Source: Escherichia virus TH44 | Sequence record: MT446415.1 | Strand: one strand, 5' to 3' | DNA length: 64,000 nucleotides | Shown: in pieces, positions 20,488 through 45,662 of the stretch | How the letters are laid out: each line of letters begins with the position of its first letter | Numbering within the stretch: position 1 is the stretch's first letter | Program-made: the position numbers and the translations under genes | Notes under the pieces: model-generated | What the model was told of the DNA's origin: nothing | The model's database searches: none | What the model saw: the letters and a program-made list of their open reading frames with translations, nothing else

Positions 20488-21273
20488 TTATTCATCAAAG
20501 AAACTATCGTCAAAGCTATCCTGTTTTGCCTTCGGAGGAGCCTCAAGTCCACGACCATTCTGCACAAAATATGGTTTAACATATTCAGCTGCTTCTGCGT
20601 TAATCTCATCAGATTCTGCATAAGGGATATCGCTGATATCTGTAAGGCCATCAATATTGTGGATTGGTTGTAAATCGAGCTCGCTGAATTCTGAAATATT
20701 AATACCTTCATTCCGTTGCAATTCAGGTTTAAGTTCTTCCCCGGAGTAAATGTATTTGCTCGCGGTGATTTTACGAATGGCGTTTTGACCTACCTGATAG
20801 AATGGGTCGTAAGGTTGTACCCATGTAATTTCGAACAGGCTGTTATCAAGAGGGAAATAAATCAAATCCCCTGCAATAGGTTCAGTGCCATTACATTGAT
20901 GTTTAAACAGATTAGGGTTAATCGATATTGTGATTTCGTCATTCACAGTCATACCGAATTTACTAAAGATAGAACCATCACCCTGATAGGCGTCAAACGT
21001 ATCCAGATAACCTGCAAATTTCCATGCTTTATCGAATTTACTCTGGAGGTCTTCACCGAATAGCAAATCCGGTTTAACGAATTGTCTTGGGATATAATAG
21101 AGAGACATTCCACGCATCTGAATACTTTCGGCAACAATAGCATCAGCTAAAGTCTGGGTATTTTCATGATGCATAAAGTTTACATAAGGGTTCAATATCT
21201 CTGTAGCATTGGTATTGTCATACCCGGTCCCGTCTTCGAGCCGGGCGAATAATCTTGAGTCATAAGTAGCCAT
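20488..21273 (-). CDS. 14: Neck protein gp14
   Basis: 261 aa; between gp13 and gp15. Confidence 0.85.
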
Positions 21274-22211
21274 TAGCCCACCAATATAGGAGTCGGTGCA
21301 TCCAGCAAGTCAAGTTCCTCACGGAGACGTTCTTTTTCCATACGAGCTTCTTCGATTAAACGGACGCCATCAACCGTGGTACCACCTGGCATCATCATCC
21401 CCTGATGTTTAGCCAATACGTTGCCGTTAACTTCCTTAACGAGTGCCGTGGCATAGTCTTTCACCCAACGATTGTTGTATGCACCATCTTGAAGTCCAAG
21501 GTCCTCACCAGCTCTCATGCCGCTTATTCTGCGTGCCGGGTTATCCCACTGTGCGCCAGCATTCCACGGATTATCACAATCAGCCGAAGCAAAACCATAA
21601 CCAGCTGTATTGCCTACCATTGAATCCACACCGTTATATGATTTGGTATAAACTTCAATTACAATCACATCTCCCTGACGGAAGTTGCCCATAATTTTAA
21701 GTTGTTCAGTATCGTCATTATACCAGTAATCTGGCAGCGGAACCATCAGGTCTTGCATCATTGAACGGTATTGCATAAGCTGTGTAAAATAACCAAGGTC
21801 TGCACCAAAAGCATTTGGGCCAAAGCTGTTACATGAGCTACCCATTCCACCGTTAATCCCAGCAAGGCCCAGAACGAAATCTGTGAACCACGGATATGTA
21901 GCTTGTCCGTCCATTGAAGTTAATGAACCGACGTTAGTACGAATAATCTGCGTTACTGCAAAAATATTACGGCCTTTTAAATCGAAAACACCATCGCGGA
22001 ATTTCTGTTGTGAAACTTCATCATGGCCAATATAAAAAGCCTGATAACCTTTGTTATAACCATTATAGTGATATTCGCCATATAATTCTAATGCACGCTG
22101 GATGCAATCATAAACCTGTTCGGTCGTAACTTCGATATTCGTGATTGGCGCACCAAGACGACGAAGGATTGCATCTTTTAATTGTTTCGGGTTGTATGAT
22201 TCAGTTGCCAT
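21273..22211 (-). CDS. 13: Neck protein gp13
   Basis: 312 aa; between wac and gp14. Confidence 0.85.
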
Positions 22212-22229
22212 ATGTTTTCCTCTTTACTG

Positions 22230-22237
22230 TATTTATA
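22230..22237 (-). promoter_or_regulatory. Late promoter TATAAATA for gene 13
   Basis: Reverse-strand TATAAATA between wac terminator and gene 13 RBS. Confidence 0.5.
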
Positions 22238-22245
22238 CGAAAAAA

Positions 22246-22257
22246 GGGCCGAAGCCC
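22246..22257 (-). terminator. Terminator hairpin after wac (GGGC-UUCG-GCCC + U-run)
   Basis: Reverse strand GGGC-TTCG-GCCC followed by TTTTTTCG. Confidence 0.6.
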
Positions 22258-22262
22258 TTTTA

Positions 22263-24509
22263 TTATGGTGCTGGATTTAATGTCACAAATGTTGACAAAA
22301 GAACCCATGCATTATCAACGAGAACATACGGGAGACCATCATCCGCAGGAGCGACAGGAGGCCTTTTGGCGAGCTCTGTTTCTAAGGCTGATACTTTACC
22401 TTCTAAAGTAGTTATCTTCGCCTCGGCTGCATCCAGGCGACCAGGAAGAGGAGTTACTTTGCCTTCGAGAGTTGTCACACGAGTGGTTAATGGTGCAATT
22501 TTTGCAGTATCAAGTTTAATCGTAGCGATTTCATCTTCACTCGAGGTAACACGTACAGTTAATGGTGCAATCTTAGCAGTATCGAGTTTAATCGTATCGA
22601 TTTCATCTTCAACTGTTGCGACTCTTTCGTCTAGCGGTGCAATTTTTGCAGTATCCAATTTAATTGCGGTAATTTCATTTTCACTTGATGTGACACGCGT
22701 AGTTAATGGAGCAATTTTTGCAGTATCGAGTTTAATCGCAGTGATTTCTCCTTCCGCCGAAGTCATTCGCCCGGTCAAGGTTACCAAACCACCTTTGTTT
22801 GTTTCGATATTTGCTTTGATAGTAACCAGTTCACCTTCAACATTGCTAACGTCTAAAGCTAAAGCAGTGACATCATCATCAGTAGACGCGGTTTTGGTTT
22901 CCAGTGCGGTTATTTTACCGTCAACAGTCGTATCCTTCGTTTCTAATGCAGTGAGTCGACCATCTTGTTCCGTATCTTTATTTTGCAGAGCAAGAACATC
23001 TGCCTTAACACCAGTGACGGAAGTATTCAGCGCACCATAACGAGTATCTAATGAACTAATTGCCGTATCATTATCGTCAACACGACCAGTTAATGTTGTT
23101 ACGCGCCCATCAGTTGTTGCCAATGAAGCTTTAACCGCATCAACTTCGGTTTTGGAATCGATAATTTCTGTCCAGGCTCCTTGCTTGCGACCATATAACT
23201 TATTGTCCAATGGTGCGTCGTTCAGCTTGGTCGCCATCAGCATATCCAAGTTAATTACAACCGGAAGAACACCACGTTCAGCCACAGTAGCACCGTTAGG
23301 GTTAGTTCCGTTCATCTGACTAGTTAAAGTCAAAATAGAGCCTTTCATACCGGTGTTATTTGTACCGATTTCGGCCTGTACATCCTGAAGACCTGATGCG
23401 GTTTCGTTAGCCAGCGTAGTAGTTGCATTCAACTTGTACGTGATAGTGTTTGGCTCTGGAGATTGCTCTGTACCGATTCTCTGAGAAAGCCATGCAGTGG
23501 TTCCGCGTAAACCGGAGCTTGAATCCTGACCAACAACAACCTGTAATCCATTAACATCCGTGCGTAAAGCACTGATTCGACCATTAATTGTTAATGGTTC
23601 CAGAGCGGTGCCGATATCAGCTTCAACCTTAGTGAGTCTTGGTTTGATATTCGCAATATCTGTTTCATTGACTAGAACACGTCCACCAAGATTTTCAACG
23701 CGGGTTGTAATTGCAATCCCTGTACCAAAACCAATAGCTTCTTGAATGCTGGCAATATCTTCGTCAATTTCGACTGCTTTATCATCAAGAGTATTCAGTC
23801 GAACAAATACAGCCGGTTTACCTGTTGCTAAAGTAGACTCACCTAATTCTTCACGAATTTTAATTACTTTTACGTTAAGAGAACCAACATCAGAATCGTG
23901 ATAGTTATCTTCAAGAGTCTTAATACGAACTCCATGCGCAACAATAGCCGAACTGTTATCGATGATGCGGCGTTTCATGCCTTTTGATGGATTGCCAATA
24001 ACCTGAAGACCATTTATATCTTGGTCAACATACTGACCTAATTCATTTTTAATCCATAAAAGGTCATTACGAACTGTGCGATAATATGAATCGGTTAACG
24101 GGTCATAAGCACCAACATCTTCCTTTAACTTTTTAAGACCTTCGGATGTTTCGCTTGATAACAATTCAGTATTAAATTGGCGTTCATCAAGGTCAAGAAT
24201 ATCCGTACGGTTTTTTTCAATTTGTTTAACAACTTCCGTGTTAGTTGTTATATCCAAAGCTTCCTGAATATTATTGACGTTATCAATAATTTCGTTGATT
24301 TTTTCTTTAGATGTATTTGAGTTGTCGTCGAGTGTATCTACGTTTGTTTGAACGCTTACCGCAGCAGCGTTCAAATTACCATCATGGCCATATTTGGTGC
24401 TGGCCGCAGTCATACAATCGCCATTTTGTATCCAACGAATTCTCTGTTGACCTTCGTCTGGAATACCGATGCTATACGGCAGTTCTTTGAGACTGAGTTT
24501 ATTAATCAT
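22263..24509 (-). CDS. wac: Fibritin (whisker/neck fibre), elongated coiled coil with C-terminal foldon
   Basis: Start trimmed to MINKLSLKELPYSIGIPDEGQQRIRWIQNG (AAGGA RBS); C-terminal YVLVDNAWVLLSTFV foldon-like; 748 aa. Confidence 0.88.
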   Translation of the reverse strand: MINKLSLKELPYSIGIPDEGQQRIRWIQNGDCMTAASTKYGHDGNLNAAAVSVQTNVDTLDDNSNTSKEKINEIIDNVNNIQEALDITTNTEVVKQIEKNRTDILDLDERQFNTELLSSETSEGLKKLKEDVGAYDPLTDSYYRTVRNDLLWIKNELGQYVDQDINGLQVIGNPSKGMKRRIIDNSSAIVAHGVRIKTLEDNYHDSDVGSLNVKVIKIREELGESTLATGKPAVFVRLNTLDDKAVEIDEDIASIQEAIGFGTGIAITTRVENLGGRVLVNETDIANIKPRLTKVEADIGTALEPLTINGRISALRTDVNGLQVVVGQDSSSGLRGTTAWLSQRIGTEQSPEPNTITYKLNATTTLANETASGLQDVQAEIGTNNTGMKGSILTLTSQMNGTNPNGATVAERGVLPVVINLDMLMATKLNDAPLDNKLYGRKQGAWTEIIDSKTEVDAVKASLATTDGRVTTLTGRVDDNDTAISSLDTRYGALNTSVTGVKADVLALQNKDTEQDGRLTALETKDTTVDGKITALETKTASTDDDVTALALDVSNVEGELVTIKANIETNKGGLVTLTGRMTSAEGEITAIKLDTAKIAPLTTRVTSSENEITAIKLDTAKIAPLDERVATVEDEIDTIKLDTAKIAPLTVRVTSSEDEIATIKLDTAKIAPLTTRVTTLEGKVTPLPGRLDAAEAKITTLEGKVSALETELAKRPPVAPADDGLPYVLVDNAWVLLSTFVTLNPAP
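22486..22760 (-). repeat. Tandem ~60-70 bp coding repeats in wac coiled-coil region
   Basis: Four copies of ttaatggtgcaat.tt.gcagtatc.agtttaatcg; protein repeat KLDTAKIAPLTTRVTSSE.EI.AI. Confidence 0.75.
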
Positions 24510-24517
24510 TTTGGTCC

Positions 24518-26068
24518 TTAGTAATGAATTTTGATAATATAGTTTAAAGACATATTCCATGGGCGAGTTTCATAACCAATAAGACCTTCACGGTTTAATG
24601 TACCTAAAGCATCTCTGCCGCCACCGAGTTCAAATCCATCGTTAGTAAAATATGAAGCGTTATCCCAGTCCGCATATTTTCTTGTGCCCAGATACCCCTG
24701 ATAAACTGATGCACCAAATGGAGCTTCGTTACGTTGGTATTCACCCCAACCACCCGCGTGTTTATGATATGACATTTGCTGGGCTTGTACACCACCGACC
24801 CATGAACCATCACAACCAACACCCAAACGGTCTTTGCCATAACCATCTTGACCGCGGTTATTCAGAATATGTCCACCGGTACCAGCACCACGAACAAACA
24901 AACCACGCATATCAGGAATACCGACGTTGGTCCAATCACCACCGAAACGAGTCCCAACAGTATTTCGATAGTCAGGGAATTGGTCACCATTAACGGTGCC
25001 ACCATGACACATAATCCAACCAGGAGGAGCACTATCACCCGCAAACATCATCACGGTTCCGACAGGAACACGTTCAGAAGCATAACGTTGTGTGGAAAGT
25101 AATTGGCCACCCATGTGAGCCGTATTAGAATCAAAATTGCCAGTGGAAATATAATCTAAAGAAAGACTTCCATTAATTCGTTGACCGCCGCGAGTGTTAA
25201 TTACATCAGCGTTCCAAGCCAGTGCGCCAGCACCATCGCCACCGGGAGCAACCCCCGCCTGAGTAGTTAATCTAACAACACCGCGAATATCGGTTGTAGC
25301 ACCACGGCCATTAAGAGTTGCTCCGGTTACTGCAACGCCATCAGCACTGTTATTAATCTCTGACTGAGTACCAAGACGAATAATCCCCGCGCGGTCTTGT
25401 GTTGATGTACGAGCATTTAAACCAGCCGGAGAAATTGCTACACCGTCACCTAGAGTTCCTGCTTGTACTTCAGCATTTGTAGCAATTCGTACTAAACCAG
25501 AAACAGTTTGTGTGGCAGTTGAATAAGTCGGAAGAGCTGCTGTTGCTTTGCCAATTGCCAGAGCAACTTTCAACGGAGACATAGCAGTTGTATCATCTGT
25601 ACCAGCTAAAGCTGCATCCTCGGTACTAATACGAAGAACACCCAAATTATTTTCGGTACCGACACGAACAGTAAAAACATCGTCAATTGTTGCTTTTAAT
25701 GAAGATGGAACAATAGCCGCATCGGTTACTGTTCCGGCAATTGCTTCAGCATCGGTTGCATAACGGGTAATACCTACATAAGTTTCTGTGGCTTGCGTAG
25801 GGATGTCTAAACGAGCTTTTAAGGTCGCTGGAGTAACTGCAGAGTCTGGACTAATACCATCAATAACTTCTTGTGTGGTGGCTAGTCTGATGAGTCCTGC
25901 AGTCGTTTCGGAAGAGGCTGGGATATATCCATCTAACGCAATTTTATTAAGAGACCCTAAAGCCTCTTGTACGTTGGTAACAGTCGACGGGAAAGCTGTC
26001 CCCGTCGGGTCGAACGTTTTATATTCGGATTTATCGCTAATGTGTTTTAGCGTGTTAGTCGTTGTCAT
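24518..26068 (-). CDS. 12: Short tail fibre protein gp12
   Basis: 516 aa; C-terminus SYHKHAGG.GEY...TRPWN.SLNYIIK closely resembles recalled T4 gp12 receptor-binding domain. Confidence 0.92.
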   Translation of the reverse strand: MTTTNTLKHISDKSEYKTFDPTGTAFPSTVTNVQEALGSLNKIALDGYIPASSETTAGLIRLATTQEVIDGISPDSAVTPATLKARLDIPTQATETYVGITRYATDAEAIAGTVTDAAIVPSSLKATIDDVFTVRVGTENNLGVLRISTEDAALAGTDDTTAMSPLKVALAIGKATAALPTYSTATQTVSGLVRIATNAEVQAGTLGDGVAISPAGLNARTSTQDRAGIIRLGTQSEINNSADGVAVTGATLNGRGATTDIRGVVRLTTQAGVAPGGDGAGALAWNADVINTRGGQRINGSLSLDYISTGNFDSNTAHMGGQLLSTQRYASERVPVGTVMMFAGDSAPPGWIMCHGGTVNGDQFPDYRNTVGTRFGGDWTNVGIPDMRGLFVRGAGTGGHILNNRGQDGYGKDRLGVGCDGSWVGGVQAQQMSYHKHAGGWGEYQRNEAPFGASVYQGYLGTRKYADWDNASYFTNDGFELGGGRDALGTLNREGLIGYETRPWNMSLNYIIKIHY

Positions 26069-45509: not shown

Positions 45510-45583
45510 GGCCCTGTAGCTCAATTGGTTAGAGCATCCGGCTCATAACTGGCAGGTTTCCGGTTCAAGTCCGGATGGGGCCA
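45510..45583 (+). tRNA. tRNA with CAT anticodon (Met by sequence; likely lysidine-type Ile as in T4)
   Basis: Cloverleaf folded by hand: acceptor GGCCCTG/TGGGGCC, D arm GCTC/GAGC, anticodon loop CTCATAA, T arm TCCGG-TTCAAGT-CCGGA. Confidence 0.8.
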
Positions 45584-45585
45584 CC

Positions 45586-45662
45586 CGGGGTGTAGCTCAA
45601 TTGTATAGAGCAACGGTCTTCTAAACCGTAGGTTGTGGGTTAGAATCCCACCACCCCGACCA
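45586..45662 (+). tRNA. tRNA-Arg (anticodon TCT), CCA encoded
   Basis: Perfect acceptor CGGGGTG/CACCCCG, D arm GCTC/GAGC, anticodon stem ACGGT/ACCGT with loop CTTCTAA, T arm GTGGG/CCCAC, 3' ACCA. Confidence 0.85.

Follow-up and report, generated by a model that had tools for sequence, protein, structure and literature searches.

Fibritin is best described in phage T4, where twelve trimers sit on gp13, six of them forming the collar and six the whiskers (PMC12929629). The C-terminal part of T4 fibritin makes contact with the long tail fibre close to the knee and aids fibre attachment, and the protein keeps the fibres retracted in adverse conditions, acting as an environmental sensor (PMC3797505). 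Other fibritins are built differently. JS98-type fibritins carry two T4-like foldon motifs, with a coiled-coil spacer between them whose length varies (Letarov & Krisch 2013, citing Latypov 2007; PMC3797505). RB43-type fibritins have one or three Ig-like domains and a C-terminal region that varies by module copy number (PMC3797505).

Here we analyse a repeat array in wac, the fibritin gene, within a 64-kb stretch of phage DNA (the window). We consider it highly probable that the array consists of four in-frame 24-residue modules in the coiled-coil spacer of a JS98-type Gaprivervirus fibritin, and that these modules are old paralogues reshuffled by recombination. No description of Gaprivervirus fibritin repeats was found in the literature searched.

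The window encodes a JS98-type fibritin

The gene lies on the minus strand (Table 1) between gene 12 (24518-26068) and gene 13 (21273-22211), and genes 12-wac-13-14-15-16-17 are arranged as in T4. Its product matched PHROG 1056 ('fibritin neck whisker') over aa 1-601 (E = 1.8e-183) and Pfam Fibritin_C (E = 1.6e-17), and, over 59% of its length, was ∼40% identical to T-even fibritins of 485 aa. On a Logan contig identical to the window, the neighbouring genes were labelled by Pfam as gp12, gp13, T4 neck protein and gp15. Over its first 25 kb, the window shares 95-96% identity with Gaprivervirus genomes (PSD2001 and ECML-359 among them), and the phage collection contains no exact match to this part. 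The gene is wac and codes for a JS98-type fibritin; the phage, a T4-like coliphage, belongs to Gaprivervirus.

The listed open reading frame spans 22263-24560 on the minus strand, and we counted the protein from the ATG at 24509. This codon lies 8 nt past the gp12 stop, has an AAGGA Shine-Dalgarno sequence at 24515-24519 and gives the MINKL N-terminus common to the wac product and all close homologues. The upstream ATG at 24560 (765 aa) was rejected as the start, being inside gene 12 and lacking a Shine-Dalgarno sequence; the exact 765-aa form was also missing from the protein collection. The exact 748-aa protein is recorded both from NCBI and from Logan. Counted from 24509, the product has 748 aa compared with 487 aa in T4 (PDB 2bsg), in agreement with an earlier reading made from the sequence only.

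Directly 3′ of the wac stop is a terminator-like hairpin, and beyond it, ahead of gene 13, a T4 late-promoter consensus (Table 1). This stretch was read from the sequence and was not among the matches of the consensus scan; for sigma-70 promoters and terminators, that scan gave no enrichment. An antisense open reading frame overlapping the array (22141-23040, plus strand, 299 aa) had no Pfam match and was not accepted as a gene. It was taken as a chance mirror of a coiled-coil gene.

Two foldon motifs enclose a long spacer

The window protein shares with T4 fibritin (gpwac; PDB 1aa0, 1avy, 2bsg and 3j2o) an N-terminal neck-binding domain, a shaft predicted to be a segmented coiled coil, the conserved NGTNPNG loop, a C-terminal foldon and the position between genes 12 and 13. 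Homology at the N-terminus, gene position and C-terminal foldon thus all identify it as a fibritin. The T4 counterpart of the N-terminal domain fixes the fibre to the neck protein gp13 (PMC3797505, PMC12929629). However, T4 fibritin has a single foldon and no spacer. In alignments to solved structures, T4 fibritin matched aa 371-415 and then aa 675-743, and the insert relative to T4 amounts to ∼260 residues between T4 positions ∼420 and 421.

The insert opens with a foldon-like sequence, APLDNKLYGRKQGAWTEI, in which 9 of 18 residues are the same as in the T4 foldon (APRDGQAYVRKDGEWVLL; compared by eye). The Pfam Fibritin_C match (profile positions 3-90 of 93) falls at aa 369-449, and is thus internal rather than C-terminal. 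An AlphaFold2 monomer model confidently predicted a beta-hairpin at aa 439-448 within this internal motif and another at aa 728-737 within the terminal foldon. In the terminal copy, aa 717-745 align to the foldon of PDB 1aa0, 1avy and 3j2o. The internal motif was found in all Gaprivervirus and Dhakavirus relatives examined, and the pair of foldon motifs is also present in JS98, VR5 and JS10. The spacer between the two motifs, the variable-length element of JS98-type fibritins, is 267 aa in the window and ∼45-320 aa in relatives.

The closest described architecture is that of the Dhakaviruses JS98, JS10, VR5 and IME08, which matches the window over the full length of the protein: both have two foldon motifs and the 133-aa spacer block, and the Dhakavirus proteins contain one KLDTAKIAPL unit. 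The JS98, VR5 and JS10 fibritins (718-799 aa) are ∼50% identical to the window protein over 100% of its length. The 133-aa block was predicted as one long helix (pLDDT > 90), part of a long confident helix covering aa 452-594 in the monomer model. Inside the block lies a degenerate tandem of 2 x 14 aa (22893-22976), detected as a lag-42 repeat. The PHROG 'tail needle protein' profile also matched the protein, at aa 509-597.

The sequence-only reading had described an elongated fibritin. The protein is indeed longer than that of T4, by 261 residues, but the repeats are not the main cause: 96 of these residues lie in the four units, and the remainder is the JS98-type internal foldon motif and the non-repeated 133-aa block. 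Since the JS98-type architecture is already published, the elongation is of a known type. The feature is a new allele of this fibritin type and not a new kind of system.

Table 1. Features of wac and its 3′ flank in the window
Feature	Residues (aa)	Position	Strand	Sequence	Basis
wac (fibritin) gene	748 + stop	22263..24509	-		ORF list; PHROG and Pfam matches; Shine-Dalgarno; homologue starts
N-terminal domain, conserved	∼50	24360..24509	-		columns nearly invariant among 26 fibritins
Internal foldon-like motif	428-449	23163..23228	-	DAPLDNKLYGRKQGAWTEII	end of Pfam Fibritin_C match; AlphaFold2 hairpin
Proximal spacer block, non-repeated coiled coil	450-582 (133 aa)	22764..23162	-		six-allele alignment
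Repeat unit 1	583-606	22692..22763	-	TSAEGEITAIKLDTAKIAPLTTRV	
Repeat unit 2	607-630	22620..22691	-	TSSENEITAIKLDTAKIAPLDERV	
Repeat unit 3	631-654	22548..22619	-	ATVEDEIDTIKLDTAKIAPLTVRV	
Repeat unit 4	655-678	22476..22547	-	TSSEDEIATIKLDTAKIAPLTTRV	
Distal coiled-coil segment	679-716	22362..22475	-		corresponds to T4 fibritin residues ∼421-455; phmmer to PDB 1aa0, 3j2o
Terminal foldon	717-748	22266..22361	-	PPVAPADDGLPYVLVDNAWVLLSTFV...	aligned with T4 foldon
Terminator-like hairpin, directly 3′ of wac stop		22240..22259	-	AAGGGC-TTCG-GCCCTT + T run	read from sequence
T4 late-promoter consensus, past wac hairpin, ahead of gene 13		22230..22237	-	TATAAATA	read from sequence

The array comprises four in-frame 24-residue units

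Tandem Repeats Finder placed the array at 22486-22748 (period 72, 3.7 copies, 75% matches, score 294), where the sequence-only reading had located it in wac, and this was the sole tandem array scoring at least 150 in the whole window. The period is therefore 72 bp and not the 60-70 bp first proposed. In codon register, the array resolves into four in-frame units of 72 bp (24 aa) covering 22476-22763 on the minus strand (aa 583-678). Identity at lag 72 was 0.71, compared with 0.32 ± 0.03 in codon shuffles (z = 12.4); because this lies far above the shuffled controls, the array is genuine.

The copies had also been called nearly identical, which their sequences contradict: pairwise identity within the window is 67-82% for DNA and 67-83% for amino acids, and IKLDTAKIAPL (11 aa) is the only invariant stretch. 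Across 20 units from ten fibritins, 15 of the 24 positions were at least 95% conserved. The 3′ half of unit 4 is identical (36/36) to the single unit of phage P479.

Unit number varies among related phages

Other Gaprivervirus alleles (P479, EAWsc9, TH15, VR26 and MN01) have the same gene and unit family, and the alleles are 93-96% identical in DNA outside the array. The shortest fibritins, of 541-543 aa, have one unit and lack the 133-aa block, as seen in an alignment of six alleles. This group comprises 15 phage records including P479, EAWsc9, RZ and DK-13; membership was set by match span, with P479, EAWsc9, DK-13, P0001, P0002 and P0132 read directly. All longer alleles have the 133-aa block. 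It is combined with one unit in the 674-aa fibritins of TH15 and of P0130 (on 7 contigs), three units in VR26 (722 aa), four in the window (748 aa) and ∼6 in MN01 (789 aa), where one unit is cut to 17 aa. Since related isolates carry 1, 3, 4 or ∼6 units, unit number both expands and contracts at this locus, as the sequence-only reading had anticipated.

In DNA alignments of the alleles, the indel edges all fell at the conserved core of the unit, ATTAAAyTn|GATACTGC, a pattern that homologous recombination between units in register would leave. P0131, another allele of 748 aa, was recovered from 9 contigs (ENA ERZ27235411 and Logan SRR7532884 among them) and also has four units but of another composition. 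Compared with the window, it has 35 differences in the 216 nt of units 2-4 (16%) and 22 in the other 2031 nt (1.1%). With divergence concentrated in this way, the array is a hot spot of unit exchange, and the comparison of the two alleles points to unit shuffling by recombination. The locus thereby illustrates how recombination can shuffle modules within a structural gene.

Scans of larger collections for two adjacent units (GATACTGCAAAAATT-N57-GATACNGCNAARATT) returned none in the metagenomes and VR26 alone in IMG/VR. Because these scans were nearly empty, the allele spectrum is drawn from GenBank phages and Logan/ENA contigs. The locus has the in-frame copy-number differences among close relatives of a variable-number tandem repeat, but not its nearly identical copies, as the longest exact word shared between units is 20 nt.

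The array is older than the divergence of the phages that carry it

We compared the units across phages as well as within the array. Sister units in the window differ by 4-10 synonymous codons per 24, and the closest pair is 82% identical. In contrast, each window unit has a nearer counterpart elsewhere: u1 is 97% identical to MN01 u1 and 89% to VR26 u1; u2 is 92% identical to MN01 u4 and 89% to VR26 u2; and u3 and u4 are both closest to VR26 u3 (85% each). As the units are more alike across phages than to their sisters, the array is older than the split of the window phage, MN01 and VR26. Concerted evolution inside the window array was ruled out by the same comparison.

These data bear on two explanations that would make the array either recent or unreal. 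The sequence-only reading took the repeats to be recent, meaning that slippage or unequal crossing-over produced the copies lately in the window lineage and that they have remained nearly identical. Variation in unit number between close relatives fits such a history, and in MN01 some units share exact stretches of at least 44 nt and a 51-bp duplicate is 94% matched; recent events at the array locus therefore do happen in other phages. However, the synonymous differences between the window units and their cross-phage matches of 85-97% speak against it, and for the window array we regard recent duplication as most improbable. Tandem repeats are also a classic cause of assembly error, and an assembler might have inflated or collapsed the unit number, a possibility that the sequence-only reading had itself named as fatal to its claim. 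This was not borne out. At 20 nt, the longest exact repeat falls short of the k-mers that assemblers normally use and is only a small fraction of a read. Logan contig SRR11772956_3056 agrees with the window at every position over 8247 bp, although this contig possibly derives from the same reads as the window genome and then counts as an independent assembly, not an independent isolate. The different four-unit allele on 9 contigs and a reading frame unbroken through the terminal foldon agree with a correct assembly. Given the short exact repeat and the identical contig, misassembly is very unlikely, and we give it next to no weight.

The units are predicted to extend a trimeric coiled coil

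The sequence-only reading had spoken of KLDTAKIAPL-type heptad segments. The repeat is in frame and of coiled-coil type, as it proposed, but the units are not plain heptad segments, since 24 aa equals three heptads plus 3 residues (21 + 3). In a simple heptad scan, the heptad phase moved by 3 residues with each unit. The sequence suggests that a unit reads IKLDTAK-IAPLTTR-VTSSENE-ITA, that is, three heptads followed by a 3-residue discontinuity. Each unit holds a proline (P19) and an Asp that is invariant and predicted to lie in the core. The AlphaFold2 monomer was mostly helical across the array, with pLDDT of 45-70 in units 2-4; at this low confidence, it broke the helix at K-L-D and not at the proline.

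Searches against solved structures matched the units to the core of the P22-type tail needle gp26 (PDB 4lin, E = 1.7e-11) and to reovirus sigma-1 (PDB 6gao, E = 2.6e-7). Together, the helix predicted in the monomer, the broken heptad pattern and these matches to solved trimeric coiled coils are consistent with a trimeric coiled-coil structure for the shaft, including the units. The gp26 core (PDB 2poh, 3c9i and 4lin) has similar heptads (ITANTKAITALNVRVTTAEGEI vs IKLDTAKIAPLTTRVTTLEGKV) and is a trimeric coiled coil, but its heptads are unbroken, without the 3-residue shift or the proline of the units. It also belongs to another part of the virion, the tail tip, and has other terminal domains. 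Only the helical core of the needle is matched by the window protein, whose N-terminus, C-terminus and gene context are those of a fibritin. The resemblance is thus one of working principle and not of family membership. Natural tail needles differ in core length, and 4lin is presumably an engineered fibre lengthened by duplicating the gp26 helical core.

Coiled coils rise by ∼1.48 Å per residue. At this value, a unit would span ∼3.5 nm, four units ∼14 nm and the 267-aa spacer up to ∼40 nm. We propose that the modules, lying in the spacer between the internal foldon-like motif and the terminal foldon, would each form a stretch of parallel trimeric alpha-helical rod, three heptads and three residues long, and would each lengthen the distal part of the collar/whisker fibre by ∼3.5 nm. 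These old paralogues very probably change in number and order through in-register homologous (unequal) recombination and unit exchange in the conserved core, with length alleles of 1, 3, 4 and ∼6 units as the outcome. Whisker length would then depend on unit number, and it is plausible that the reach of the terminal foldon region does so too. Such a change may in turn affect docking of the long tail fibres by the whisker tip, both in assembly and in retraction. Since T4 fibritin assists long-tail-fibre attachment and keeps the fibres retracted when conditions are unfavourable, whisker reach is plausibly adaptive. The 1-, 3-, 4- and ∼6-unit alleles, with or without the 133-aa block, form a natural allelic series in similar phages, which could be used to probe whisker length against fibre docking and environmental sensing.

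Could the units be functional motifs?

The units may do more than set length. In an alternative explanation, they are functional motifs whose IKLDTAKIAPL core binds or senses a partner (long tail fibre, ions or pH), so that copy number tunes valency or sensitivity and not just length. The high conservation described above for the 20 units spans two genera with fibritins of only ∼50% identity, and synonymous changes occur in the core; this exceeds the need of a passive spacer. In the gp26 alignment (ITANTKA vs IKLDTAK), the invariant pair Asp13-Thr14 falls at positions d and e of the Asn-Thr layer. In trimeric coiled coils, ions are coordinated by layers of the Asn-Thr type, and adhesin stalks have Asp at d (PMC13580157). 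Environmental sensing by T4 fibritin (PMC3797505) also fits. However, the case is built purely from sequence, and the register is uncertain because AlphaFold2 is unsure across the units. Moreover, one unit is enough in most relatives, and T4 fibritin is described as binding the fibre through its C-terminal moiety, close to the foldon (PMC3797505). We therefore regard binding or sensing by the units as unlikely. One form of the idea takes in the broken register: the array would stack up charged core layers responsive to ions or pH, with register breaks built in, and the number of units would tune how stiff or how environmentally sensitive the whisker sensor is, and not just how long. This too we regard as unlikely, and we favour the reading of the units as recombining coiled-coil length modules.

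Modules of other fibritins

Length variation takes other forms in related fibritins. In Dhakavirus, it arises through a 31-aa (93-bp) module and 17-aa (51-bp) partial units (ETGLAAVKVESDKVAGINTRLG...) placed after the single KLDTAKIAPL unit, whereas the window lineage amplifies the 24-aa KLDTAKIAPL unit itself. The modules of RB43-type fibritins are globular Ig-like domains, in contrast to the coiled-coil units of the window. Among the coiled-coil fibritins compared here, every indel module is a whole number of heptads plus 3 residues long, whether the 24-aa module of the window lineage, the 31-aa and 17-aa modules of Dhakavirus or the 17-aa one of MN01.

Internal organisation of the fibritin

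In the 748-aa fibritin encoded by wac, the end of the Pfam Fibritin_C domain falls at an internal foldon-like motif (aa 428-449) rather than at the C terminus. The protein has two foldons, a point that the sequence-only reading, which described an elongated fibritin with tandem coiled-coil repeats, did not include. The 133-aa spacer block (aa 450-582), a non-repeated coiled coil, contains a tandem of two 14-aa units, DTEQDGRLTALETK and DTTVDGKITALETK. DNA identity at lag 42 is 62%, and this tandem looks like an older, decayed repeat.

Other indel modules lie in the fibritin of MN01 (locus L002, 3313-3693) and at locus L008, 3501-3939. The MN01 units are much more homogenised, and one is truncated to 17 aa with a TTGCA microhomology at its junction. 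Dhakavirus fibritins instead carry 93-bp and 51-bp arrays. All indel modules seen (17, 24 and 31 aa) correspond to a whole number of heptads plus three residues.

Features of the window
Feature	Position	Strand	Remarks
Hairpin AAGGGC-TTCG-GCCCTT with T run, then T4 late-promoter consensus	22230-22259	-	between wac and gene 13
Degenerate 2 x 14-aa tandem	22893-22976	-	within 133-aa spacer block
Internal foldon-like motif	23163-23228	-	aa 428-449, mid-fibritin
In-frame ATG upstream of wac start	24510-24560	-	inside gene 12
Adjacent tRNA-Met (CAT) and tRNA-Arg (TCT) genes	45510-45662	+	

Boundaries and annotation of wac

The ATG within gene 12 would extend the fibritin by 17 aa (MEYVFKLYYQNSLLRTK). 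Several GenBank records (vB_YenM_P8, UPEC07 and DK-13; 558 or 560 aa) are annotated from this codon, which is probably the wrong start. The hairpin and its T run lie directly 3′ of the wac stop, followed by the late-promoter consensus TATAAATA, with the gene 13 start 18 nt further on; this hairpin was absent from the consensus scan output.

Some fibritin homologues carry odd labels in public records: those of MN01, P479 and PSD2001 are entered as 'hypothetical protein' and that of vB_EcoM_ESCO10 as 'phospholipase', while one JGI entry reads 'predicted nucleic acid-binding Zn-ribbon protein'.

Neighbouring gene content

In the related phage VR26, genes 13 and 14 are separated by a SegC-like homing endonuclease gene (locus L001, 4763-5206); in the window they abut at 21273.
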